Source: a virus
Lineage: Duplodnaviria; Caudoviricetes
IMG/VR virus record: IMGVR_UViG_3300015607_003363
Location: 32,001 to 96,000 of that record
DNA: 64,000 nt
Strand: one strand, 5' to 3'
Part shown: one piece after another, positions 1 to 41,478 of the stretch
Position numbering within the stretch: position 1 is the first letter of the stretch
Layout: each line of letters begins with the position of its first letter
Program-made: the position numbers and the translations under genes
The notes under the pieces: model-generated
The model's input: only the letters and a program-made list of their open reading frames with translations
What the model was told of the DNA's origin: nothing
Database searches by the model: none

Positions 1-824
1 TTTTCTAGTTCTATAGTATTAGCAACATCTCCCACAGGCAGAACTTTATTAATAGTAGTAGCCTGAATCAGATCGGCTGCGCCTATAATAGGCAACAGAT
101 ACATACCGAAATCATTCATTCTTGTCTTGAATTCGAACACGTATTGATTCTTGTTCAATTTTATTACTTTAGAAAAGTCTAGGGTGTCATCGACCACCAG
201 AGCCTGATTATATCCTTCTAGATCTATCGAATTTGATTCAAGATGGAGGTAATTTAGGCTCGCGTATTTTATGTCAGACATAGCTCCACATAGAGACGAT
301 AAAATATCAAGCGGAATACAAGAAACAGCCAGATCAAATTCCAATTTATGACCAGAATCAAAAGTGATGATTCTATTGTGTTTGTCAATTCCCGTTACTT
401 TCCCATATTCTAGCCCAGTTCTAATGTCATCTTGATATTTATTATATAGGATGCGATAAATATCAGAACTGGAATGGTTGTAGATGAAGCGATTGTCTGT
501 GGCCATGACCATAACAGCATGATCAGGATAATCGTTGCCTGTTATTTTGGAAAGCCACATTTTCATCAATGTGGTATCTGTGCCACTGATCAGAGCACCA
601 CCATAAGAGAAGCATGTCTTATACATGACGGGAGCTGGTGTCACTCCAAGCTTCATAAAATATTCTGATATGATCGGCTGAACGTGTATGAAATCTTCAT
701 TCAGTGGAATCTTGAATTTATAAAATCTACTATAGCCAAATGGAATGACAATAAAATCTTCTGGCATTATTAGCTTAGCCAATAAGCCGACTAGGCCAGA
801 GCCAAGTATGATATTCTTAGCCAC
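1..824 (-). CDS. FAD/NAD-binding Rossmann-fold oxidoreductase-like protein (runs off the window start)
   Basis: Not in the ORF track; my translation from GTG at 824 gives MAKNIILGSGLVGLLAK (GxGxxG) and later VTGIDKHNRIITFDSGHKLEFDLAVSCIPL, typical of FAD-dependent oxidoreductase folds; AAGGA upstream. Confidence 0.6.
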   Translation of the reverse strand, partial: MAKNIILGSGLVGLLAKLIMPEDFIVIPFGYSRFYKFKIPLNEDFIHVQPIISEYFMKLGVTPAPVMYKTCFSYGGALISGTDTTLMKMWLSKITGNDYPDHAVMVMATDNRFIYNHSSSDIYRILYNKYQDDIRTGLEYGKVTGIDKHNRIITFDSGHKLEFDLAVSCIPLDILSSLCGAMSDIKYASLNYLHLESNSIDLEGYNQALVVDDTLDFSKVIKLNKNQYVFEFKTRMNDFGMYLLPIIGAADLIQATTINKVLPVGDVANTIELE

Positions 825-835
825 TATTCATTTCC

Positions 836-1405
836 TTACTCATCAGATATTTGAATCTGCAATGCTTCAACCAGCCCCAATTCTGCATGTCCCATCAGGC
901 CGCAGCTTAGTGGCTCGACTACCATCATTTCCTTTTCCATTATTACGCCCTTTTTACCAAGGCCGCATTCATTGCATTGCAAACTATCATCACTTGGGAA
1001 TTTGACTTCAATTCTGCTATTACATACCGGACATTGGCACACTAGGGTGTCAGCCATGCCAAGCTCATTGGCTTCGGTGGTCATCATCCTGCCTTGCGTC
1101 TCAATGTCGCCAATTTTGACAGTGATCAATTGATCGATGGGCGTATCTGGGACGATGGTGGGCTGTTGGACGCGATTCTGACGATCTATTCTAGTGCGAT
1201 TGCCGCTGAAAGGTGATTTGCTGACGGTGGACTGATCGTTGTCTGGAGCAGCCGAATCTGGCATGTTTATTTTAATGTTGGCAATACCAGATTGAACAGG
1301 GGCAGTAACAGTTTCTGCAATAACTTCGTTCTGTCCTCTGATGAGTGTCTTAGTTGTTTTAGTGCCATCCAGCTTGATGCGCGTAACTTTAATCGACCGA
1401 CTCAT
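836..1405 (-). CDS. hypothetical protein with C-terminal Zn-ribbon
   Basis: CPVC...CNEC motifs; overlaps its neighbour within the minus-strand operon. Confidence 0.6.
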   Translation of the reverse strand: MSRSIKVTRIKLDGTKTTKTLIRGQNEVIAETVTAPVQSGIANIKINMPDSAAPDNDQSTVSKSPFSGNRTRIDRQNRVQQPTIVPDTPIDQLITVKIGDIETQGRMMTTEANELGMADTLVCQCPVCNSRIEVKFPSDDSLQCNECGLGKKGVIMEKEMMVVEPLSCGLMGHAELGLVEALQIQISDE

Positions 1406-1809
1406 ATAATACCCCTCGATAATCTAGTATAGCACTCGGTGCACGATATCATATCTAACAAGTTTTCAGTGATAGTGTTATTGACAATAGTACTTTGAGT
1501 TTTTGGATTCACCTCTATATTGATTTTGGCCTCAGCGACATTGGTGCTGTAAATCTTGTTAGCTATACTACGACCACACCAGTCGCAGGAAACCAGCCTA
1601 GTCGGCCTATAATTAGTAATCGCTAGATTACTGAATTTTTTAAAGCATGCGGGACACCAGTCAAAGCTTTTAACCTTGACTGGCAAGCCTTGTCTTATAC
1701 CATCAACCATCGACTGTTCTAGAAAATCGGCAGAATAATATGTGAATACGAATTGGCACTTTGCATTACATGCATCACAAGATATTCCAGTCTTATCTGG
1801 TAGAAGCAT
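1402..1809 (-). CDS. Cys-rich putative double Zn-finger protein
   Basis: CDAC, CPAC, CDWC, CTEC motifs. Confidence 0.6.
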   Translation of the reverse strand: MLLPDKTGISCDACNAKCQFVFTYYSADFLEQSMVDGIRQGLPVKVKSFDWCPACFKKFSNLAITNYRPTRLVSCDWCGRSIANKIYSTNVAEAKINIEVNPKTQSTIVNNTITENLLDMISCTECYTRLSRGII

Positions 1810-2203
1810 ATTCGATCACTCCATGACTAAAAAACAACAGACCGAATTTATTTATTGTATATATCGAATCGACTTGGAATAAGAACTCGAAGCATGGTTG
1901 TCTGTTCAGCCTCTTTGGTGCTTCGAGCCTCTTGGTAATTAGACTGCCGTCAATATAGAACAGAACTTCAATTCTATTGCGATAAGCCATAGAAACACTT
2001 ATTGGCTGTTTATTACTATCCAGTACATGTTGATTCCTATTGACATAGCAGTCATGAAATCGATATGTTTCAGCATAGTAACTGAAAATGCATTCAGCTA
2101 CCGCGCCATAAGGTTGTAAGATGACATCCTGATTGTGGGCGATGTCTATAATTGAACGATCTAAACCATCTTCGTCCGTAACTGATTGAATGTCTGCGAA
2201 CAT
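1793..2203 (-). CDS. hypothetical protein
   Basis: 136 aa ORF overlapping both neighbours. Confidence 0.55.
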   Translation of the reverse strand: MFADIQSVTDEDGLDRSIIDIAHNQDVILQPYGAVAECIFSYYAETYRFHDCYVNRNQHVLDSNKQPISVSMAYRNRIEVLFYIDGSLITKRLEAPKRLNRQPCFEFLFQVDSIYTINKFGLLFFSHGVIEYASTR

Positions 2204-3414
2204 TATATGCCGCCCACTACATCTCGCCAGTTTTTGGCTTCCTTTTTCTTCAACAGCATCACTGACGACTGCTTGGCTAGAGATGTCTGGTTTCGGTTTT
2301 CATTATATGATATGGGCAACCTTAAGCCGACACCCGGTTTCAAAACAGCTGTATCCATGAATTTCATATTGTCATTCCAGATGTAGACGTTTGTTGTCTC
2401 AATCCCGTCAGTCACATTTAGCATGATATATGGCTTGCTTTCTTGTCTGTCGGTCGCCTTTGTCATTTTACGAGTGGCGCTGACTAGTACGCAGTCCAAT
2501 GTGTCAGAAAAGCCGATGTTTGATATACAGTAATCATCATTATATTCGAACAGCCACATCGGAGAATGAATAGTCAGGCCAAGAAATTCCTTTTCTAGCT
2601 CCAGAATTTCATTGTAAGTATAGTCATCATATAGTTCATTGAAGAGGTCGATGCTTTTGGTGTCAATCGGAGGAAGCCAGTTCATTATTTTGGCTGGTAT
2701 TTTCTTTTTCTTAGGGTTCAGCATTTTATACTGCTGAATCTGCTCGTCTCGCTCTATCAGAATCGACTCTTCAGTGCGATTTGTCATTTGATAGTAAAGG
2801 TGTCTCACTTGTGCTTTCAGGTCCTTTACTTCTTGGCCAGAGCAATAGTTGTATTGGTACCACATCCATAATGCTTTTCGATTGTAATAGAACTCATCGA
2901 ATGCCCCTAGATTGATCAGGCATTCCATGGAGACTTTGCTTTTTCCATGGATTTCAATGAATTCATGGATGTTTTCATATTTCTTATTGGTCGCAGCGAT
3001 CTCACTGATCGACTTGGCTTTTTTCTTGTCAAAGCCCTTGATGCCGACCATGCCCGGAACGATGTAGCCAGAATACTCATCGTCGTGGTTGATGCGGACA
3101 TTGCTGACAGCTAGGAATTTTTCGCTTAGTTCATTGACTGACAGCTCTTTGATGACGATTCCATCTTTCCGAGCGGAAGAGATATATCTGACGCGATTTT
3201 CATGGCTTGAACCACTAAATACAGCCTCCCAGAATTCGAGCGGGAAATAGTTCTTGAGCCAACAGCATGTATAGGCAACTAGACAATAGGCAAGAGCGTG
3301 AGAGTTTCTGTGAATCGCTGACGATGAGTCAGTGACATAGTTATGTTCTGGACTAGCCATTTCTGGTGAGTATGTTTGACGCATACCTAGAGGTCTGAGC
3401 GATTTGATTTTCAT
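2203..3414 (-). CDS. dnaE: DNA polymerase III alpha, C-terminal part (IntC + fingers/HhH/OB)
   Basis: SHALAYCLVAYTCCWLKNYFPLEF, GIKGF, LINLGAFD, LELEKEFLG; begins with a 37 aa C-intein. Confidence 0.92.
   Translation of the reverse strand: MKIKSLRPLGMRQTYSPEMASPEHNYVTDSSSAIHRNSHALAYCLVAYTCCWLKNYFPLEFWEAVFSGSSHENRVRYISSARKDGIVIKELSVNELSEKFLAVSNVRINHDDEYSGYIVPGMVGIKGFDKKKAKSISEIAATNKKYENIHEFIEIHGKSKVSMECLINLGAFDEFYYNRKALWMWYQYNYCSGQEVKDLKAQVRHLYYQMTNRTEESILIERDEQIQQYKMLNPKKKKIPAKIMNWLPPIDTKSIDLFNELYDDYTYNEILELEKEFLGLTIHSPMWLFEYNDDYCISNIGFSDTLDCVLVSATRKMTKATDRQESKPYIMLNVTDGIETTNVYIWNDNMKFMDTAVLKPGVGLRLPISYNENRNQTSLAKQSSVMLLKKKEAKNWRDVVGGI
3304..3414 (-). other. split intein C-terminal half (IntC)
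   Basis: MKIKSLRPLGMRQTYSPEMASPEHNYVTDSSSAIHRN/S: block F with HNY, terminal Asn and +1 Ser. Confidence 0.88.
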
Positions 3415-5063
3415 ATGGTTGTTGATACCTGTTGTGTATATATCAGTCTGTGATGCCCAGCATCCCAGATTCTACGATATCCGTTATTGAACATGTTTTG
3501 TGATTCTGACAATTTATCATCAAATACATCAAGAAGCTTAGCCAGTTTGTGCTTTTGAAATCTATTCCGTGAATATAACCGATTGGCCTTAAAGTATTTG
3601 TATCCCGGTGGTGTTATTCCAAGGTGAGTAAACCCTACTGTTTTGTAGGCCGATGCTTGCGAATATCGCCGATCAGCGAAAGTAAATATCTCTTTAATAC
3701 CAAGTCGATTGACTGCTGTTTTAATCAGTTTGCTTAATCCGCCAATGACAGTGTGGTTAAGTAAATTGGCGAATCTGATAATTTCGATGCGACCATGGTC
3801 AACGCCTAGTGATATGGCGCAAAATATGCGATTGTTATCTGATAAGCCGTAATAGCTAGCAGTTTGGCGATGGCCTTGTAGATGATTGGTGTTGAAGAAA
3901 TCTCTGGCTTCAGTTTCGCTCAATTCGACTATCTTGAATTTTCTAGCATACAATCTAGTTGTTTTGCCTAGTTTGCTTGCTATCATCGATTTGACAATGT
4001 CATTTTGTTTTAACCACTCAATATCATATATCTGAAACAGTTGAACGCCATGGCGTTCTGCCAGAGTTGATTTGAAATGATGTTTGTATCTCTGTGGCCC
4101 AGTCTCTGGTGTATCAAATGAATGCCAGTATACACCATGATATTCTATGCCGAACTTGAATGGTTCGATATAAATGTCGATCTCGCATCCGCCCAATATT
4201 GTTCGATTTGATTTTGTTATACCTGTTACACCTATTTCTTCAAGCCATTTGATTATATCGTCTTCTTGTTTTGATGATCTTGTTTCGAACGAGCATTGTG
4301 GACATCCGTTAGCGAAATGAATATGATGACTTGGCAGTTGTACAAATTCACCATGTTGTTTGCAAATGATTATAATCTTATTTTTAAAGTTGCGATAATT
4401 AGCTTTGGTGTAGTCGTACTTTGGCCCATGTACTTTAGTAGCTTCGGCGATGAAACGATCCGCTGACCATCTTTTTGCAACAGCGTATTCTGGATTTAGC
4501 CAATATGCTTTTCTAGCTTCTGATATTCTTTGGGTGTATTCTTGATCGGTTGCGAATTTTTGTTTTATCGATCGACTCAGTTTCTGCTTTGTTTGGCTAG
4601 TGTGTCTATTGGTACAACGTGATCGATACTCTGGATTATCCCACAAGGCACGTGATCTTTCTGATGAACCTGCCGTGATGTCAGATAATGCAGCCAATGA
4701 TTTTTGGCGATTGATATTACGATAAGTTTCAAGACTTCTAAAACACTGCGGGCAATGGTATGATTGAGCTTGATAAAGAATCTGCTTATTGATAGTTCTG
4801 ATCAATTCTGCATATACGACACTTCGTTCGCCTTTACACTTTGTACATCGAACTCGCACGACTGACTTACTTTTCGGTTGCTCGACAACATCGATCATCA
4901 TCAAGGCTGATGACATCCAATCCTTGGTTGAATATTTCTTGGACTGTGTGATATTGTCCATCGGCGCATTTAAATTTGTGTTGCAATGTGACTCGTTCAA
5001 CTTGTCCGTTGTCGAATTCAACTTCAAACACCTCTTGAACGCCCGTATCATGAATAACCACAC
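3411..5063 (-). mobile_element. free-standing putative homing endonuclease (Zn repeat + Vsr/PD-(D/E)xK nuclease + GNAT-like C-terminus, Hef-like); true start probably ~4900-4960
   Basis: VHGPKYDY...ICKQHGEF...GCPQC; EIDIYIEPFKFGIEYHGVYWH; NHLQG...EIIRFA...FADRRYS...RIWDAG; sits between the intein halves; its stop overlaps the IntC ATG. Confidence 0.8.
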
Positions 5064-5199
5064 ATCTATCTGATACTATATTATTGTATGCATCGACTGA
5101 TTTGATTGCCTGTGGTAGCACTGGAGAATTAAACCAAGACTCGACGGTCTTAGTCTCGTTTGTCGCCAAATCAGTTATAGGAGTATCTTTATCAAGGCA
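4867..5199 (-). other. split intein N-terminal half (IntN, 110 aa)
   Basis: K/CLDKDTPI (block A), DTGVQEVFEV, VTLQHKF (TxxH block B), then a stop codon. Confidence 0.88.
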
Positions 5200-6855
5200 T
5201 TTGTTAAACGCATACCTTCCGAACGTCACCATCTTACTCCACCATTCGGCTGCTTCTTCTTGCCCGATGGATCTGCCAGCGCCGACCATCCACATTTCTT
5301 CGATAGGCCGAAGTTTATCAACCCATTTCTTGGCGACAGCTTTTCTTGATTCTTGGGCCTGAACTGATGTGAAATTGGCAATGTTCTGCCAGAGAGCAGC
5401 TAGCTGTTCCTGAAAGACAATGCAGTTATAGGTGTCGCCGATCACTTTCATGAATTCTGGCGTAACGTTCTTCTCCCAAGTTCTAGCCGTGTCTTCTCTA
5501 TTCTTAATAAAATCCGGGATCATGGCCATAGGGCCGGGGTGCCCTAAAGCATTGATAGACAATAAATCATTGATGGTACGGACGGCATTTCCATTAGATA
5601 GACTGTTGCATTGCTTTAGAATATTCTGTGCTACTGGTGTGTCAAATTGAAAGATTCCATCTGTCCGAACGGAGTTGATAATATTAAGTGCGCCGGGGTC
5701 ATTGAGTGAGATTTTGACTCTTTCGCCTGTTGGCTTGATATACCAACCTAGCCTGTCGTCTGTAGGATCGGTATCAAACAGTTCAAGCAGGTTTTCGCCA
5801 AAGCTGATTCCGTGATTTCTATGAATCGCTTTACAGCATTCATAGATATATTGCAGGTTTAAAAGACCAAGAATATCCCATTTGATGAAGCCATATTTGG
5901 AAAGCTGGGTGATTCTCCCTTCTGTCCAGAGGCTCATCCAGTCGCCCTCTGATCTTCGATAGAGAGGCAGATTGCCATAAAGCTGCTCATTGGAAATAAT
6001 GACAGCACCGGCATGTTTGCCCTGACCCTGAATTTTTCCTACTAGTCGTGATGCTATATCTATCAGTTTTGGATATTTTGCATTCAGGTCGGCTAGAGGC
6101 TTGATTTCTTCAATAAGCTTGCCGAGCGTCGGCGTTTCGGTGTCTGTGCCTCCGCATTTTGGGCATTTGCTTTCCCTGAATGTGTTCTTGCATGCTACTT
6201 TGGATTTGGTAACTGGATCGATAATCGAACCACGGCAGAAGCCGAATCCACCCTCTTTCATGTCATCAACGTCATTGGGAAATTCTTTTGTTAACCGTTC
6301 CACATCAAAGGACTGTGGCCAGTTATCCATTCCACGATGTGCCTTGGCTACATCTGCTAGGGCTGACTTGAATTTGTAGGTTGTCCATGATGAAACTCCA
6401 CAAACCTTTCCAAAATCATCAGTCGAATCAGCTGAGTATTTCTGTACCGCATAACTTTCAATTAGCGGCTTGCTTTCCGGGAGGAAGTCGATGTCGATAT
6501 CCGGCTTGTCAGTGTCTAGCTTGATGCCGACTGGATATTTTGAATGTTCTTTATGATAAGCTATAATGTCAGCATATTTGCTTGTAGTCGTTATGTCCGA
6601 TATGTCTTCGACTGTAGCTATTGGGTCTTCTTCTACCATATTGAAGAGCCATGGTAGAACTAGTTTGGCTGGGTTGGTCTTATATTTGGCCTGATCGTTT
6701 ATTAAATTGGCCCAATAACCTTCTGCTCCCTGCTTCTTGATTTCCTGCAATTCAAATTTTAGACGTTGCTGATAGATCTCTGGCAATGAGGCCACTGCGG
6801 ATTTGGCTTGTTCGGCTATGTCTTCAAAGCTAAGCATGGTGCGTACCCGAACCAA
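4867..6855 (-). CDS. dnaE: DNA polymerase III alpha, middle part (palm DxD, thumb, fingers) ending in IntN; likely start 6837
   Basis: PDIDIDF, GKHAGAVII, KWDILGL, GIFQF, VFQEQ, FGRYAFNK followed by the intein. Confidence 0.92.
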   Translation of the reverse strand: MVRVRTMLSFEDIAEQAKSAVASLPEIYQQRLKFELQEIKKQGAEGYWANLINDQAKYKTNPAKLVLPWLFNMVEEDPIATVEDISDITTTSKYADIIAYHKEHSKYPVGIKLDTDKPDIDIDFLPESKPLIESYAVQKYSADSTDDFGKVCGVSSWTTYKFKSALADVAKAHRGMDNWPQSFDVERLTKEFPNDVDDMKEGGFGFCRGSIIDPVTKSKVACKNTFRESKCPKCGGTDTETPTLGKLIEEIKPLADLNAKYPKLIDIASRLVGKIQGQGKHAGAVIISNEQLYGNLPLYRRSEGDWMSLWTEGRITQLSKYGFIKWDILGLLNLQYIYECCKAIHRNHGISFGENLLELFDTDPTDDRLGWYIKPTGERVKISLNDPGALNIINSVRTDGIFQFDTPVAQNILKQCNSLSNGNAVRTINDLLSINALGHPGPMAMIPDFIKNREDTARTWEKNVTPEFMKVIGDTYNCIVFQEQLAALWQNIANFTSVQAQESRKAVAKKWVDKLRPIEEMWMVGAGRSIGQEEAAEWWSKMVTFGRYAFNKCLDKDTPITDLATNETKTVESWFNSPVLPQAIKSVDAYNNIVSDRCVVIHDTGVQEVFEVEFDNGQVERVTLQHKFKCADGQYHTVQEIFNQGLDVISLDDDRCCRATEK

Positions 6856-7259
6856 CAGAGTTTATAATTAATAGCCGCTTGCTCAGCGACACTATGACAG
6901 ACTTCTACAATACTATTGTCAGGCTTTTCAATCTTTAAATTAGGGACTCTGGTCCTTAAATCATTGACTTCCTGTGCATAAGTCTTTGGATCGACTTTAT
7001 ACTTGCCATCGACTTTTTCAAATAGATCGACAATGTATTTGACATTGCACTTTATGACTAAATCTTTGGGGACAGGCTGAAGTATGCCGATAGCATATTT
7101 CAGAGCCACTAGAATGGCTTTCTGATAAGTAGAAAGCATAGTAGGAAAGCCAACAGCGAAATTGTCTTTGCCGTCTATTTCTCCGGCGATACCGCAGGCA
7201 AATGTTACGGCATTTGCCTCATTCTTCATAGACTTATAAGCAATGGTCAAAACGGTCAT
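6816..7259 (-). CDS. RNase H-like fold protein, apparently catalytically degenerate
   Basis: STYQKAILVALKYAI...LVIKCNVKYIV resembles RNase HI TNNxAELxA...IxxDSxYV but lacks the acidic residues. Confidence 0.45.
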   Translation of the reverse strand: MTVLTIAYKSMKNEANAVTFACGIAGEIDGKDNFAVGFPTMLSTYQKAILVALKYAIGILQPVPKDLVIKCNVKYIVDLFEKVDGKYKVDPKTYAQEVNDLRTRVPNLKIEKPDNSIVEVCHSVAEQAAINYKLCWFGYAPCLALKT

Positions 7260-7280
7260 GGTAGCCTCCGATTATAATTA

Positions 7281-8678
7281 TTACATTTTCACTCTAGACG
7301 ACTCATCCATAATAGTATTGAGCATAAATCCGCCTCGGCTCTCACTGAGAAATCTGTCAAAACTCAATGACCAAGGAAGAGGGTCGGTGCGAGATATACC
7401 AAGTAGCCAGCAGACCAATGAACCACCAGCAGAACCACGCGCGTTATGGATATAACCGCGACGATAGCTCTCTTGCGTCAAGTCTTCCGTGATGAGAAAG
7501 TAGCTGGAAAAGCCTTTATCTATAATTCGTTTTAGCTCTATACCAGCCTGCTGAAGATGGGTAACTTCTCTACCGTCGATGACGTATTTTCGTTCATCCT
7601 TCAATAGATTCCGGTCTTTCAGAGCCTGTGTAACAAGCCTGATCAGTCGTGCATCAGAGTCTTCACCGACATAGGGTGTTTTGGGAGCATCATCGACTTT
7701 GATATGTTCGCATTTATCTCTGACTTCCAAGGTATTATCGCAAGCTTCCTCAAAGAGCCTGTCGTCTATTCCCTTTGAGTAGCCATTGTTCTTGAATCTT
7801 TCCCATAGCTCTGCTCTGGTCTTAAAATATTGTTCCGAACTATTAACGTGGAACAGGTTCTCCGTGTCCCACACTGGTACATCCTGATCGATAGCCATCA
7901 TAATCATCTGCAGTTCTGAGTCATCGCGTGTCAAATAGTGGGCATCGTTGGTTATCAGTGGTTTGATCTTTAAATGGTCAGCCATAGCAACAAGCTGCCG
8001 GAATACCAAATCATCACCTTCAATGCCCGGCATCTGTAACTCGACGTAAAAGTCTTCTCCAAATGCGGCTTTAAATTTCTTCAGCCAGTCGATGGCCCCT
8101 CGTTTGTCAGGGCTAGTAAGCCGTGGTTTTTCCTTTTGATCAGTCAGTCGTAATTCGTGTGGGACTGGCCCATTTAGACAGCCGGAAGTGATAATTAGAC
8201 CTTCTTTATGCTTACATAGAAGGTCGAACCATACTTTATTGCGATAGTAATAACCATACTTGAATGAGTCGGTATATAGCCTCATGAGATTGTGATAGCC
8301 GGTTTTGTTTTTGGCGATGACTGTCAGGTGTCTGTCGCGTCGATATCGGCTATAGGTGACTGGGTCGGTTTCTCTTAGGTCATTGAGTTTCCCGCCGTTA
8401 GCGGCAAATTCCTTTCGTTCTGGCTCGTAATCGTTGAAATATATCTCACAAGCATAAATTGCTTTCAACTTGTGTTTTTTGCATTGTTCATATAAATCAG
8501 GCCAAGAACCTAGATTGCCATGTTCAGAAAGAGCTACCGCGCTCCATTTTCGATCAACGCACGCCTTTGCATATTGTTCTGGAGTGGCTACGCCATCGAG
8601 CGTGGAAAAAATAGAGTGGCTATGTAAATGGGTAAAATCAGTATTACCAGAATAATCAGCGGAGTTCACAATGGCCAT
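7281..8678 (-). CDS. dnaE: DNA polymerase III alpha, N-terminal part (PHP domain + GS motif); ORF extendable to 8717
   Basis: FTHLHSHSIFSTLDG, SEHGN, CEIY, RHL, SGCLNG, TNDAHY, RGSAGGSLV, FDRFLSESR. Confidence 0.93.
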   Translation of the reverse strand: MAIVNSADYSGNTDFTHLHSHSIFSTLDGVATPEQYAKACVDRKWSAVALSEHGNLGSWPDLYEQCKKHKLKAIYACEIYFNDYEPERKEFAANGGKLNDLRETDPVTYSRYRRDRHLTVIAKNKTGYHNLMRLYTDSFKYGYYYRNKVWFDLLCKHKEGLIITSGCLNGPVPHELRLTDQKEKPRLTSPDKRGAIDWLKKFKAAFGEDFYVELQMPGIEGDDLVFRQLVAMADHLKIKPLITNDAHYLTRDDSELQMIMMAIDQDVPVWDTENLFHVNSSEQYFKTRAELWERFKNNGYSKGIDDRLFEEACDNTLEVRDKCEHIKVDDAPKTPYVGEDSDARLIRLVTQALKDRNLLKDERKYVIDGREVTHLQQAGIELKRIIDKGFSSYFLITEDLTQESYRRGYIHNARGSAGGSLVCWLLGISRTDPLPWSLSFDRFLSESRGGFMLNTIMDESSRVKM

Positions 8679-10500
8679 ACGAAAAACTAGCCTCCAAGTC
8701 ATAAAAGACTTCATCAATGTCCACCATAATCGATACGATTATAGCAAAGTCGAATATGTAAATTCTAGCGCTCATATTACGATAATTTGCAAAACCCATG
8801 GACCATTTCGGCAAATGCCGAGAGCACATCTTTCTGGTCAAGGATGCAGTAAATGCACACAATCAGAAAATTGGCGATCTGGCAAAAGCACACTAGATCG
8901 TTTCATTCAACGTGCTGTATCTATACATGGCGATCGATACTCCTATTATAATTCTAATTATAAAGGAAGTAATCAAAAAATCACTGTTACCTGTAAAATC
9001 CATGGTGATTTCTCTGTCAAAGCAAATGCTCATCTGAATGGCAATGGGTGTCCAAAATGCTCTAATAATAAATTGAAAACAAATGCCCAATTTATATCAG
9101 AATCACAAGCTAAACACGGTTTTAAATACGATTATAGCTTAGTGCAATATCTTTCATCTACCACTCCAGTTTTGATCATTTGCCCGTCACATGGTAAATT
9201 CAAACAACGACCAGTTAATCATATTGCTGGTCAAGGATGTAAGAAATGTGGAGTTGATCGATCTGCAAGCATTATAACTGGTTCATGTGATGATTTCATA
9301 GCCAAATCTATTAAAGTACATGGTAATTTATATGATTATACAGATGTCGAATATGTCAGGGCAACCATCCCAGTCAAAATAAAATGTAGAAAGCATGGCG
9401 TTTTTTTACAAAGACCACGTGATCACGTTAATAGTAGTAACGGTTGTCCTAAATGTAGTAATAATCAAACTAAAACCACTGGGGAATTTATTACTGAGGC
9501 AAATCTTCGTTGGAGTGGTCGATATATTTATGATCACACAGACTATAAAAACAGCAAGACGAATGTCACAATAACTTGTAGAAAACACGGTGATTTTAAT
9601 ATTGCGGCTGGTTATCATTTAGCCAGAGGCGGATGCCCGACGTGCTCTCTATCATCTGACCAATATGATCTTAGTGAATTTATTAAATCTGCTAAACCAT
9701 GCTCAATTATACTCAATGATCGCACAACAATAAAACCGTTTGAACTAGATATCTACATTCCTGATCATAAATTGGCTATAGAGTTGAATGGAAATTATTG
9801 GCATTCATACGAGTCACCGGAAACGCACGAACAACGCATGAGACACAGTTTAAAATGCGACAAATGTTCGAGTATCGGGATTAAATTATTACAATTTACA
9901 GACGCAGAATGGTCTAATAAAAAAGAGATAGTAAAATCTATGATATTAAACAACTTACAGTTATCATCTAAAATTCATGCAAGAAAATGTGCCGTCGATG
10001 ATGAGCCGCCCAATCAACAGTCATTTTTTAATACAAATCACCTTTACGGTCACAGACCGGGATCGGTATCTATTAATTTAAATTATAAAGACGAAACGGT
10101 CGCAGCAATCAATTTTATCGATTATAAAGATGGTCGTTGGGAAATCTGCCGTTTCGCTACTAAATTGAACCATTGTGTTGTTGGTGGCCTAAGTAGATTA
10201 TTACAGGCATTTATTAAAATCCATAAGCCAAAAACTATTATGACCTATGCTGACAGAAGATTTTCATCTGGAATAGGTTATATGTCCTGCGGATTCAAAT
10301 TAATTAAAATCACTAAACCGAATTATTGTTATCTAGATTGTAGAATGAATGTACTTTCTCGCCAGAAATGTCAAAAACACAAGTTGCCCAAATTACTACC
10401 TGTCTGCGATCCTGACTTATCAGAATCGCAGAATATGTTTAACAATGGGTATCGTAGGCTATGGGATGCTGGGCATTTCAAATTCATATTGAATATCTAA
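8671..10500 (+). mobile_element. free-standing putative homing endonuclease with five CxxHG...GCxxC repeats, Vsr-like nuclease and GNAT-like C-terminus
   Basis: Repeated YDYS...ICxxHGxF...HLxGxGCxxC; ELDIYIPDHKLAIELNGNYWH; EICRFA...YADRRFS...RLWDAG; AT-rich and opposite in strand to its neighbours. Confidence 0.8.
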
Positions 10501-10507
10501 TAGTAAA

Positions 10508-10729
10508 CTAATCCTTCTTCAGTTCCAGATAGTCGCTTATCGTCTTCATTAACATGAATGTTGTCGTACTAATAGTATTCAAAGTCTCATCTTCTGTTTC
10601 ACCCATGGCTTTAATCAGTTTTCTAACTTCGACATTCAGTTCATTTACCAGTCTCTTTAACTCTGTTAGATGCGTGTCGATCTTTTCCGGATTATTCATG
10701 TTTGCTCCTAAGCAGTGCCGTCTGTACAT
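10508..10729 (-). CDS. small helical hypothetical protein
   Basis: Likely start MNNPEKID with GGAG upstream. Confidence 0.45.
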   Translation of the reverse strand: MYRRHCLGANMNNPEKIDTHLTELKRLVNELNVEVRKLIKAMGETEDETLNTISTTTFMLMKTISDYLELKKD

Positions 10730-12024
10730 GGGTTACAATCTTGTTCAGCTGGACGGTCAGAGTTCATTATAACCCATGGATACTTAATACTTCTTGTGCC
10801 ATCCGGTGTAGCCCATACTCCATTAGTCGATTCGATATCACTATAGCCAATCCAGTCGAAATTATACTCATTATAAAAATCGCCGACTTGACAACCGGCA
10901 ATAGGAGTCCACTGAGGCAACTCTAATGTCGCCCTAACGTTGGTTTCGTCTTCCAGCTTCCATCGCCTGAATCTCTTACAGGAATTAAATGTTTTCTCTA
11001 CAGCCAGCAGGTTCGACTTATAAGGATGGTCTGGGGCGATATCAGGTATGCCGGGAACGGTAATTCTACTAATGCATTGGGCGTTTGGAATTTCTGACCT
11101 TGTGAACGCTATAGCATCCCTTAACTCGTCTACTCGCAATTCGATAACTGGTTGGGCGTAACTGACACGTGGCGGAAGAACTGTCTTTATGACATTGATA
11201 TAGCTCTTGCCAGCGGTTCCGGGATCGCCTTTTTCGCCTTTCTGTAGTGCTCTGAAATACCATCGATCATTGAAGGACCCGCTAAGCAGGTTAATAGTGG
11301 CAGTCAGATATCCGTCTGCATAGATGGCTGATGAATTAGGGTTGAGTTTGAATGATAGGCTGGTGGATTTCAGCTGAGTAGGCGATGTTCCATCGACTGG
11401 AACGTCTGCAGATATTATTACTCCATCATCGGTATACTCTGGTGGTCGGACGGAAAACAGTCTTAGGCTTATATCTTCACCATTTATGTTCTTAACTGGT
11501 ATTTTGATGACTATCTGTTTTTCTGTAAATGATGAAAAACGGCTAGTGATATTGTGAGTAGGCTCGCCACAGATGACGGCATCTGGGATAGCGTCGTATC
11601 CGGGATCTCCTCTGTCGCCTACGTCGCCTCTATCGCCTTTTCTCGCCATTGAGATGAAATGTCTGAGTATCTCATGGATGTTTATTTCTAATCGTAGTGA
11701 TTCGTCGCCTTCTATGATGAAGTTGATTGTGTTGTTGCTTGATTTCAGGATGTAGTAGTATACATCGGTTATTGGGCTTAATTTGAAGAATGCTGGTAGG
11801 TTTGTTAGGGTCGGTCCGAATTTTTCTTTGAGTTCATTAATTTCTGTCTGGATTGCTGGCGTTGCTAGACCGTCTTGTTCTTCGTTGACTTCGGGAAGGG
11901 TTTGTACTATTCCTGTCTGTCTAAAGTTGTTGGTTTCTTTGTCATATTCCCAGATTATACCTAAATAATCTATATATTTGGTACCTTCTACTATGTTCGT
12001 TTTGGGAAGAAATGGTATGTTCAT
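10708..12024 (-). CDS. putative virion protein with short collagen-like GXY runs
   Basis: KGDRGDVGDRGDPG and KGEKGDPGTAG. Confidence 0.55.
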   Translation of the reverse strand: MNIPFLPKTNIVEGTKYIDYLGIIWEYDKETNNFRQTGIVQTLPEVNEEQDGLATPAIQTEINELKEKFGPTLTNLPAFFKLSPITDVYYYILKSSNNTINFIIEGDESLRLEINIHEILRHFISMARKGDRGDVGDRGDPGYDAIPDAVICGEPTHNITSRFSSFTEKQIVIKIPVKNINGEDISLRLFSVRPPEYTDDGVIISADVPVDGTSPTQLKSTSLSFKLNPNSSAIYADGYLTATINLLSGSFNDRWYFRALQKGEKGDPGTAGKSYINVIKTVLPPRVSYAQPVIELRVDELRDAIAFTRSEIPNAQCISRITVPGIPDIAPDHPYKSNLLAVEKTFNSCKRFRRWKLEDETNVRATLELPQWTPIAGCQVGDFYNEYNFDWIGYSDIESTNGVWATPDGTRSIKYPWVIMNSDRPAEQDCNPCTDGTA

Positions 12025-31657: not shown

Positions 31658-32317
31658 ATGCGTTTATCGACTATTCATACTCCTGACCGTTTGATGCTGA
31701 TGATTGAACAGTCTATCGGTACGACGACCTATCATCAGCATCGCAGTCTTCCCGATCCGAACGCTGAAACTTATAAACATGTCGGTCCGACTCAAAAGGA
31801 CAACGGTCGTCAACAGCGTCCGCATAAGACCGTGACTGCTAAGGAATTGCACGATAATGCCCCTAGGACCAGCACTGAATCGCGAGATCAGCAGACTATT
31901 GATGATGAGTTCTTGGCCAAGAAGGATGTCAAGTTATGGTCTGAGTTGGTGAGTCGTGCCAAAGACATAGCCTCATCCATTTCTAGCTCAGGCCAGAATA
32001 AACTACAGAACGCAGCCAATGTTATTCGTTCGATTTTAACCATAGCTTCTCCACCCGGTAAGAGGTGGAAGATGCGTCTAAAGGAAGCTGTGGAGCCTAG
32101 AACTAGTATTTCCGATTTTGTGGGACTATTGACCAAGACCGGCATATCACCATATACAATGGGTGTTGCTCTCCATGCGTTCATAAAGGGCATAATTAAG
32201 AGTTCTGGACTTTCGGTCGGTCAAGTAATTAATTATATGAACAACGCATACGGTGGGAACAAAAATGCACAGCCAAAACAGAACGCAGACATCAAGACGC
32301 AACCAGCAAAAGCTTAA
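31658..32317 (+). CDS. hypothetical protein
   Basis: 219 aa ORF. Confidence 0.55.
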   Translation: MRLSTIHTPDRLMLMIEQSIGTTTYHQHRSLPDPNAETYKHVGPTQKDNGRQQRPHKTVTAKELHDNAPRTSTESRDQQTIDDEFLAKKDVKLWSELVSRAKDIASSISSSGQNKLQNAANVIRSILTIASPPGKRWKMRLKEAVEPRTSISDFVGLLTKTGISPYTMGVALHAFIKGIIKSSGLSVGQVINYMNNAYGGNKNAQPKQNADIKTQPAKA

Positions 32318-40299: not shown

Positions 40300-41478
40300 G
40301 TGCAGTGCATCAGAGTCATTCCGATAATTGCGGATAATATAGTCCAAAAGATACACATTCTGACTAGGGACAGGCGAATAGATTTTAATGTCTTTGCTCG
40401 TGGTTACAAGACTACAATTTATGATGCAGAAAAGGCCATTAAGAAAGTTATATCTGTCATTGAATCAGCTGTGGCCGGTGGATGCCAGCTAGTATTCTAT
40501 AACTGGCGAGGGTGGCTTAGGGCCACTCGGAAGTATGCTAATTCCAGTTTCTGGCATAACCATAGCGTCTTTGATACCGTCGAACGGTTTGATGAATCGG
40601 ATGTTGAAGCTTTAATTCAGCATGTTTCTTCTATAGATCCCAAGCCATGGATGAACGTTTACGCCAATGCAGCCATTGCCTATGAGCGGTTAGAACAATC
40701 GCCTATATTAGTTGATGGTTTCAGATATTCGTCTGTGTGGGATTACGATTCATATTCAGGACGTTCGAAGTCGCACAATCGACCGCTACAGAATCTGGAA
40801 GACGGCGTGTTTCTGGCTGATCCCAATAATATCACTAGAACGAAAATCATAACTGTTGACTGGAAGGCGGCTGATTTAATCATCGCCGCTTATTTGTCTG
40901 GCGACTCCGAGTTAGTTAAGAGAATATCTGAGACTGATATTTATACAGAACCTGAATTCGCAGGTATAGCCGAGACAAGGCAGGGTGTTAAAACGGCCAT
41001 TCTGTCAGCGTTATATAAGGCTGATAGCGATGCTTTAGCTGCGTTGTCTTTTAAGCTGGCGGAATGGGTGCAACGCCAGATGACCTTGGTGAAAGAAAAC
41101 GCTAAAATTGAGTCCTGTTTTGGGCGTGTGTTTCATAAGCATGCCGGTCGATCCGAGTTGTCTATTTTTAACGCACAGATACAGGGCTGCATAGCTTTGG
41201 CTATGATGAATAGTGTGCCTAAGGTTCAGATGGTTAGTGGTTCATCTATGCTCTTTGAGACACATGATGCTATAACTGTGGCAGCTTCGCCCGATATGGC
41301 TGCGCAGGTGTTAAAGAATATATGCAAAATCATGTATACGCCATTCGGTGATCTTATGACTATTAATGGGATGGATGTTATTATGCCGGTATCATTTATG
41401 TGTGGTGATAGATATGGTTCAAAAACAGCCAGCGGCACTTTCGATGATGGCAAAATCAAATTGAAGAAGATACCATGA
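40300..41478 (+). CDS. minimal, divergent family A DNA polymerase-like protein
   Basis: SGR; motif A VDWKAADL; motif B RQGVKTAILSALY; NAQIQG; motif C THDAI; no exonuclease or thumb recognised. Confidence 0.7.
   Translation: MQCIRVIPIIADNIVQKIHILTRDRRIDFNVFARGYKTTIYDAEKAIKKVISVIESAVAGGCQLVFYNWRGWLRATRKYANSSFWHNHSVFDTVERFDESDVEALIQHVSSIDPKPWMNVYANAAIAYERLEQSPILVDGFRYSSVWDYDSYSGRSKSHNRPLQNLEDGVFLADPNNITRTKIITVDWKAADLIIAAYLSGDSELVKRISETDIYTEPEFAGIAETRQGVKTAILSALYKADSDALAALSFKLAEWVQRQMTLVKENAKIESCFGRVFHKHAGRSELSIFNAQIQGCIALAMMNSVPKVQMVSGSSMLFETHDAITVAASPDMAAQVLKNICKIMYTPFGDLMTINGMDVIMPVSFMCGDRYGSKTASGTFDDGKIKLKKIP

Follow-up and report, generated by a model that had tools for sequence, protein, structure and literature searches.

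C-family DNA polymerases are regarded as enzymes whose catalytic subunit is a single chain, and to our knowledge the palm is the one part of these polymerases that nobody expects to be divisible. Here we describe a locus for such a polymerase, DnaE, in a 64,000-nucleotide (nt) stretch of phage DNA, which we call the window (Caudoviricetes; positions 32,001 to 96,000 of IMG/VR record IMGVR_UViG_3300015607_003363, a 108-kb fragment that is about 30% complete according to CheckV). The gene is present as pieces 1, 2 and 3, and the first two probably contribute complementary parts of one polymerase active site. Related arrangements have been described. In the group 2.2 jumbo phages a minimal Pol III alpha is split into a nucleoside triphosphate (NTP)-binding and a Mg-binding protein; the C-terminal subdomain binds Mg2+ and the DNA template, and the authors predicted that one enzyme is reconstituted from the two (Iyer, Anantharaman, Krishnan, Burroughs and Aravind 2021, Viruses 13:63, PMC7824862). 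The fragmented active site of NrdA from Aeromonas phage Aeh1 reassembles via terminal tails, without RNA or protein splicing (Crona et al. 2011, Nucleic Acids Research (NAR) 39:1381, PMC3045599). Fractured genes combine a split intein with a free-standing homing endonuclease, and DnaE is among their host genes (Dassa et al. 2009, NAR 37:2560, PMC2677866).

The locus in the window shares features with each of these systems. As in group 2.2, the cut through the Pol-beta-like catalytic module leaves the NTP- and Mg-binding parts on separate proteins, and the logical boundary is the same. However, the group 2.2 enzyme is minimal and has no PHP or other Pol III domains, whereas the enzyme described here has PHP, thumb, fingers, HhH and OB domains. 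The halves of the group 2.2 enzyme are encoded at distant loci beside a family B polymerase; here they belong to one operon and are 0.45 kb apart in the window and 0.45-2.9 kb apart in 17 relatives. Furthermore, piece 2 keeps a degenerate extra copy of a palm segment, while PMC7824862 describes no overlap or duplication. By analogy with Aeh1 NrdA, the C-terminal tail of piece 1 and the N-terminal domain of piece 2 (N-domain) may play the role of the essential terminal tails. The Aeh1 break, in contrast, goes back to the mobE homing endonuclease gene, which is still in it, and the event is recent and restricted to one phage. The break between pieces 1 and 2 is old and clade-wide, it contains no mobile endonuclease but an RNase H-like gene without a match to a nuclease family, and its flanks derive from a duplication of host-gene sequence. 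The order of N-intein, endonuclease gene and C-intein known from the fractured genes is found identically in pieces 2 and 3, but this arrangement covers only the break at FNK/SH and not the one between pieces 1 and 2. The single-chain DnaE enzymes (E. coli 2HNH, T. aquaticus 2HPI/3E0D, M. tuberculosis 5LEW/7PU7) have the same domains in the same order and all of the catalytic motifs. The phage enzyme differs from them in its two mature polypeptides, a duplicated overlap of ~95 residues, a Cys4 zinc ribbon and an identity of ≤35%.

All three DnaE pieces and the motifs that the original prediction had assigned to them were found in the window on the minus strand (Table 1). The C-family palm motifs are complete but lie on two open reading frames (ORFs), with RGS in piece 1 and both PDIDIDF and KWD in piece 2, and the single-polypeptide catalytic core by which a C-family DnaE is recognized is not found here. 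In Pfam searches piece 1 matched PHP (E 3e-36) and positions 17-98 of the 260 positions in the DNA_pol3_alpha profile. The match of piece 2 to the same profile covers positions 100-260 and starts only at residue 116. The model of the catalytic domain is thus cut between positions 98 and 100. Piece 2 also matched DNA_pol3_finger (PF17657, 1.2e-26), and piece 3 matched HHH_6 (PF14579, 3.8e-10).

The residues expected to be catalytic are conserved on both sides of the cut. The PHP metal ligands (H19, H21, D28, H53, E78, H117, C167, D245 and H247) are invariant in 116 piece 1 relatives, the window protein included. Also invariant are R414, G415, S416, G419, R442, F443, R448, G449 and G450 in the piece 1 family and D113, D115, D117, K319 and D321 in the piece 2 family. 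No region of piece 1 is better conserved than the GS unit, which has a mean top-residue frequency of 0.82 (versus 0.73 for PHP) and matches the canonical DnaE segment with 8e-33 in hhalign. The ratio of nonsynonymous to synonymous substitution rates (dN/dS) is far below 1 in every part of the locus; since dS was saturated in all comparisons, these ratios are rough values only.

Structural models gave the same division. The AlphaFold2 (AF2) model of piece 1 has a predicted local distance difference test (pLDDT) score of 91.2. Its residues 10-450 align to residues 1-398 of E. coli alpha (2hnh; Z 34), and it aligns to residues 5-461 of the Taq enzyme (Z 35). For the other half we used P0002, an intein-less piece 2+3 relative, the model of which has a pLDDT of 89.7 and a predicted template modelling score (pTM) of 0.84. 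This model aligns to E. coli alpha from residue 107/108, which equals residue 397/398 of the E. coli protein, onward (Z about 20), and its residues 802-900 match OB folds (Z about 10). The alignments of the two models to E. coli alpha make pieces 1 and 2 exact structural complements, with residues 1-107 of piece 2 as a surplus. The zinc ribbon (C201, C216, C225 and C228, accompanied by a nearly invariant H220) is an insertion in the palm/thumb region of piece 2; according to a hidden Markov model (HMM) alignment it is absent from E. coli and Taq alpha.

Piece 1 continues for 17 residues after FDRFLSESR and ends with two stop codons in tandem (TAA TAA). This tail has a length of 10-20 residues and is variable after MP, as seen in more than 100 relatives. 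The core of the tail is well conserved (0.81); in the alignment with canonical DnaE, the terminal MP has the sMP ahead of DIDID as its counterpart. In the monomer model the tail residues 449-457 are the sole part with low confidence (pLDDT < 50). A conserved tail that is predicted so poorly on its own may well be a segment that folds on a partner, for which this combination is typical.

Table 1. Parts of the dnaE locus and adjoining genes, with positions in the window.
Feature	Position	Strand	Description
Piece 1	7281-8678	minus	465 aa (amino acids) + stop; PHP and the N-terminal, nucleotide-binding half of the palm; alternative TTG start at 8717
GS unit of piece 1	7329-7559	minus	residues 374-450; helices, strand 1, RGSAGGS loop, FDRFLSESR
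RGSAGGS loop (piece 1)	7419-7439	minus	
FDRFLSESR (piece 1)	7335-7361	minus	
C-terminal tail of piece 1	7284-7334	minus	GGFMLNTIM...; family consensus RGGYMLNVxMP; proposed docking strand
RNase H-like small protein, 147 aa	6816-7259	minus	between piece 1 and piece 2
Piece 2	4867-6837	minus	N-domain, extein core and N-intein
N-domain of piece 2	6517-6837	minus	residues 1-107; diverged copy of the palm segment without strand 1, GS loop and FxRF..R motif
Extein core of piece 2	5200-6516	minus	strand 2, Cys4 zinc ribbon, HAGAV, KWD, fingers; ends ...YAFNK
PDIDIDF (piece 2, strand 2)	6484-6504	minus	
KWDILGL (piece 2, third Asp)	5863-5883	minus	
Cys4 zinc ribbon (piece 2)	6148-6237	minus	family-specific
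N-intein	4870-5199	minus	110 aa; Cys1 (CLDKD, 5185-5199), block B TLQH (4978-4989)
Free-standing homing endonuclease gene	3411-4961	minus	ORF (550 aa) open from 5063; likely start near 4961
C-intein	3304-3414	minus	37 aa; ends ...AIHRN, followed by Ser+1
Piece 3 (C-intein + extein)	2203-3414	minus	
Extein of piece 3	2203-3303	minus	end of fingers (SHALAY...), HhH domain, C-terminal OB fold
Second free-standing endonuclease	8671-10500	plus	divergent from piece 1; 5' ends overlap by 8 nt

Next we consider the surplus at the N-terminus of piece 2. It had been proposed that this region is a degenerate second copy of the palm segment that precedes it, and a comparison of profiles upholds this proposal. 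An N-domain profile, from which PDIDID was excluded, aligned in register with the canonical DnaE segment (hhalign, P 1.5e-7, probability 94%). The alignment pairs RLxFEL with ERLxxEL, KQGAxxYW with xxGFxxYF and LLPWLLGMVxxDPI with GSLVAYLLGITxxDPI. Where canonical enzymes carry strand 1 and GPGRGSA, the N-domain profile has a deletion of 11 residues, and the P0002 model contains no strand between residues 47 and 60 of the N-domain. In BLASTP, residues 392-461 of piece 1 and residues 12-~105 of piece 2 map to the same stretch, residues 339-424, of an intact phage DnaE, that of Rhizobium phage RHph_Y2_11. The stand-alone N-domain of a relative matched positions 13-86 of Pfam DNA_pol3_alpha below threshold (E 0.0035). 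HMMER alone misses the duplicate: when an HMM of the piece 2+3 family was compared with PDB sequences, the alignment started only at PDIDID. By these comparisons the overlap between pieces 1 and 2 is a genuine, diverged duplication of ~95 residues of ancestral sequence.

The N-domain has conserved motifs of its own (Y22, R25, L26, E29, Q36, G37, W42, N55, L59, P62, D71 and P72), and its dN/dS is about 0.06. In a search of 1.8 billion proteins it occurred only at protein N-termini or as stand-alone proteins of ~130 aa. The domain probably has a docking or scaffold role.

The break between pieces 1 and 2 is real, contains no intein, is old and occurs throughout a clade. The two pieces are separate ORFs in different frames, with one gene in the 0.45-kb gap between them. 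The reported lack of an intein at this break is confirmed by more than 100 relatives, none of which has a nucleophile or a terminal Asn there. The break is not confined to this phage; comparison with relatives indicated that it is the architecture of the whole clade. A search with piece 1 gave 561 proteins of ~470 aa, of which the best 120 have 455-509 aa and 51-76% identity. The corresponding search with piece 2 gave a large family of ~900-aa proteins without PHP (40-50% identity, on contigs of up to 408 kb), together with forms of ~640 aa that have the same N-intein extension at the C-terminus and are common in the family. When longer relatives of piece 1 were sought, only intein-enlarged forms of piece 1 were obtained, and after these the score fell from 324 to 190 bits, which is the level of canonical full-length DnaE at ≤35% identity. 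This search returned no fused form of pieces 1 and 2; it is word-based, and its negative result is weak evidence. Piece 1 lies 0.45-2.9 kb upstream of piece 2 on the same strand in 17 of the 18 relatives that could be assessed, with 1-3 small genes in between. In the remaining relative (L004/L022) there is no piece 1 within 10 kb of piece 2.

The members of the clade come from wastewater, sludge, soil, marine and freshwater environments. A megablast search for cultured relatives gave no match, and neither did a tblastn search with the N-domain against 50,697 phage records. The best tblastn identities of pieces 1 and 2 to deposited phages are ≤30%, and the matches in ECML-117 and Pbunavirus are single-chain DnaE proteins. 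PHROG families of ~460 residues match piece 1 from end to end. A literature search found no description of this split-DnaE family.

Relatives of piece 1 can be interrupted further. Intein sites occur at three places (P0241-P0279; L014:4168-4670; L021:4496-5873): before C77, which adjoins the PHP ligand E78; at D245/C..H247, between PHP ligands; and at RG/S416, where a split intein lies in the GS motif. Because of these additional inteins some relatives have DnaE in at least four pieces. Inteins are known to sit in conserved functional sites (PMC2814812).

These results bear on how the enzyme could work. The core that all nucleotidyltransferase (NT) folds share includes strand 1 and the GS/GG glycine (PMC11646218). 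Since the N-domain has neither strand 1 nor the GS loop, pieces 2 and 3 alone are short of a core element that piece 1 has. The conservation, the deletion and the split of the catalytic residues argue that piece 2 needs the strand 1 and GS loop of piece 1 for a complete core sheet. Among the readings of the data, a composite active site built from pieces 1 and 2 has the best support, and we infer that it is probably correct. The original prediction had arrived at such a site by way of a partial duplication with an unrelated gene inserted at the break; the duplication and the clean division of the catalytic residues are borne out, while the unrelated nature of the gene is not.

In the mechanism that we propose, this C-family replicase would be an obligate two-subunit enzyme that arose by an old, intein-free gene fission inside the nucleotidyltransferase core. 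Subunit A, which is piece 1, would contribute a PHP proofreading domain that looks active. It would also bring the palm elements that hold the triphosphate of the deoxynucleoside triphosphate in single-chain DnaE, namely strand 1, the GS loop and the helices with the arginines. Subunit B, the spliced product of pieces 2 and 3, would contribute strand 2 with two metal-binding Asp residues, the third Asp and the Lys of KWD, the thumb, the fingers, HhH and OB. The duplication would have left the overlap of ~95 residues, of which piece 1 kept the catalytic version and piece 2 a motif-less version that is now probably a scaffold or docking module. Both subunits and the RNase H-like protein would be made from one tightly packed operon. 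The tandem stop of piece 1, a GGAGG ribosome-binding site 5 nt ahead of the ATG of the 147-aa ORF and a 22-nt overlap between the stop of this ORF and the start of piece 2 all favor joint production. The subunits would then associate non-covalently, probably with the help of the conserved, disordered tail of piece 1 (RGGYMLNVxMP), and the polymerase active site would be completed across their interface. The physical association, the trans-splicing and the roles assigned to the tail, the N-domain and the RNase H-like protein are thus suggested by sequence and models.

Several observations weigh against a composite site. The direct similarity between the two copies is weak, with no significant BLASTP match and a P of 0.028 in hhalign. 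The N-domain is under purifying selection with its own invariant residues and is for this reason not merely a relic. AF2 packs this domain of piece 2 confidently in the P0002 model (pLDDT 87-95, pTM 0.84), and one structural alignment with 2hnh, in which residue 32 of the model equals residue 327 of the E. coli protein, sets the first long helix of the N-domain near the canonical helix. Should the helix lie there in the native enzyme, its homologues in piece 1 would be barred from the same slot. In addition, the record is only ~30% complete, so another polymerase may be encoded elsewhere in the genome. The observations on the N-domain, namely its confident packing, its placement in that one alignment and its conservation under purifying selection, would also fit an enzyme in which pieces 2 and 3 are a self-sufficient polymerase without a GS loop. 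The N-domain would then fill the palm slot, and piece 1 would be a separate PHP proofreader whose palm fragment has no task other than to dock it on the polymerase or DNA. It is usual for C-family polymerases that the proofreader has a gene of its own, as epsilon in E. coli illustrates (PMC12926913). However, both strand 1 and the GS/GG glycine that is conserved in all NT folds are gone from the N-domain, and the invariant residues in the palm fragment of piece 1 are those of the catalytic motifs (R, G, S, R, R), in a fragment that outranks PHP in conservation. Moreover, some relatives carry an intein in the GS motif, and in a sister subclade the N-domain is not in cis with the polymerase. We consider a self-sufficient piece 2+3 unlikely on these grounds, though it deserves to be kept in mind.

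Alternatively, pieces 1 and 2 could be joined into a single chain, either covalently or by read-through, be it that the RNA is spliced, that ribosomes bypass the gap or shift frame, or that an atypical intein is at work. It fits this idea that the tail of piece 1 ends in MP and aligns with the MP before DIDID, and that in the sister subclade a discontinuity of frame occurs exactly at PD/IDxD, which makes it conceivable that some family member recodes at this site. Yet piece 2 would have to shed 107 conserved N-terminal residues, and the two pieces are separated by 1-3 genes or, in L004/L022, piece 1 is missing from the 10 kb around piece 2. The TAA TAA end of piece 1 is followed by a Shine-Dalgarno sequence and a conserved ORF under selection, and no Cys, Ser or Thr nucleophile and no terminal Asn is found at the junction in the relatives. 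An E-value scan of positions 1-12000 with Rfam gave no intron. An RNA run was sought among the listed sequencing runs, and none was found. Given the empty Rfam scan, a spacing that differs between relatives, the two stop codons in a row and an intervening ORF under selection, RNA splicing or ribosome hopping at the break is very unlikely, and a joined product as a whole is highly improbable. Specific candidates for such a joining were discarded: a group I or II intron or another RNA (the same Rfam scan), a cryptic or atypical split intein (no nucleophile or terminal Asn in more than 100 relatives) and stop-codon read-through into the 147-aa ORF, which shares the frame of piece 1 in the window but not in L001, with piece 1 ending in TAA TAA. 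At first sight a three-piece gene near two endonuclease genes also looks damaged, as it would in a decaying pseudogene or an assembly artefact. But the region 6300-7800 is matched without indels by independent contigs from other studies of wastewater, activated sludge, sludge and marine samples, and the break is not an assembly error. The same ORF boundaries are found in hundreds of relatives, dN/dS is low everywhere and all catalytic residues are intact, and we give this explanation hardly any credence.

Assembly in trans is supported by the sister subclade, in which the N-domain is a separate ORF of ~130 aa (L012:9923-10660, L013:144-1700, L016:4861-5540 and L019:9944-10530); many such proteins exist. 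Here the N-domain is followed by ~50 residues that resemble an N-intein in its second half but have neither Cys1 nor TxxH. The next ORF of ~47 codons starts like a C-intein (MKIxxI..G...YN..G...IGIPH), has Arg in place of the terminal Asn and runs into RIEYxxDxPD, where it stops. The polymerase resumes at (I)DxDL in another frame, which is +1 in L012 and L016 and -1 or +2 in L013 and L019; in the latter two there is no ATG, GTG or TTG ahead of the aspartates. A scan of the four loci at Rfam gathering thresholds gave no match. The discontinuity could reflect recoding, re-initiation at a non-AUG codon or a further fission. Whatever the mechanism, the chain with the aspartates is devoid of an N-terminal palm half in cis, and assembly of the palm in trans is unavoidable in this subclade.

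The second break, between pieces 2 and 3, is of a familiar kind. Relative P0002 (914 aa, 92% identical) reads straight through ...YAFNK/SHALAY..., and the extein of piece 3 is 79% identical to its residues 547-912. In the window, FNK is followed by an N-intein of 110 residues, and piece 3 starts with a C-intein of 37 residues before Ser+1. The C-intein fits the pattern of known C-inteins of 35-37 aa. It ends in AIHRN/SHALAY (3304-3315 / 3286-3303), that is with Asn and then Ser, and its penultimate residue is Arg and not the usual His. The intein halves have no Pfam match and were identified by sequence only, while relative P0016 carries a full intein with LAGLIDADG. Accordingly, pieces 2 and 3 have the sequence features of an ordinary fractured gene with a split intein at FNK/SH, and trans-splicing of the two is expected to give a mature enzyme of two chains, not three.

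Between the intein halves lies the ORF 3411-5063, which matched PHROG families of homing endonucleases (2.5e-85) and HNH endonucleases (5e-84). The match starts at residue 36 of the ORF that is open from 5063, which gives a likely start at ~4961; from this start the gene overlaps the last ~30 codons of the N-intein (4867-4961) in another frame. The stop of the endonuclease gene overlaps the start of piece 3 as ATGA. An assignment of this protein as Vsr-like was not confirmed, as searches of Pfam and of PDB sequences gave nothing significant. The second endonuclease (8671-10500) is a paralogue with which it has the C-terminal ~250 residues in common, and contains Pfam DUF723 and a treble-clef zinc finger. 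It is missing at this position in L001, a relative with 92% identity, which suggests that it was inserted recently.

The gene in the break between pieces 1 and 2, which had been taken for an unrelated insertion, encodes a small RNase H-like protein and is conserved directly upstream of piece 2. Orthologues of the 147-aa protein occupy the same position in L001 (64% identical) and L002 (50%), and members of a related family lie directly upstream of piece 2 in L003, L004, L005, L008, L014 and L018. In L004 the homologue is beside piece 2 even though no piece 1 is nearby. This position across relatives indicates a conserved partner and not an unrelated insertion. The nearest clusters in the ESM Atlas are annotated 'Ribonuclease H' (score 0.94). 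The protein is without the first catalytic Asp and has no Pfam or PHROG match; its dN/dS is about 0.13, with dS saturated. It is a probable accessory or assembly subunit. In L003, L004, L005, L008 and L014 the RNase H-like gene is preceded by a second conserved, helical ORF of ~150 aa, which has no Pfam or PHROG match either.

Further observations concern other parts of the record. An ORF of 136 aa (1793-2203, minus strand) lies directly 3' of piece 3, and its start overlaps the piece 3 stop. It is 60% identical to an ORF at the same place in L001 and has no family match. A search of the 108-kb record, which represents ~30% of the genome, for PF00136 gave no family B polymerase. At 41062-41415 (plus strand), within an open frame of 395 aa, there is a sub-threshold Pfam match to DNA_pol_A (15 bits, E 3e-4), which is possibly a diverged family A polymerase-like protein.

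Taken together, the composite site, the duplicate and the sister subclade allow a more far-reaching interpretation, which we put forward only tentatively. The core sheet would exist only across the interface, with strand 1 and the GS loop coming from the PHP subunit and strands 2 and 5 from the polymerase subunit, and the duplicate in piece 2 would have turned into an adaptor whose one task is to dock its active paralogue. Seen in this way, the family would document step by step how the invasion of mobile elements led to a polymerase with several obligate subunits. As for the sister subclade, its adaptor would be a free protein fused to an eroded, non-splicing remnant of an N-intein, and the aspartate chain would follow an eroded C-intein-like peptide, so that dead split inteins would be reused as non-covalent clamps.

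A large and environmentally widespread clade of big phages thus appears to replicate with a catalytic sheet that is split over two proteins. If this is true, the clade is a natural system in which to study what allows the active site of a nucleotidyltransferase to withstand fission, how subunits evolve through duplication and complementary degeneration, and how inteins, homing endonucleases and non-covalent assembly follow one another within a gene. The naturally split polymerase scaffold would also be of practical interest.

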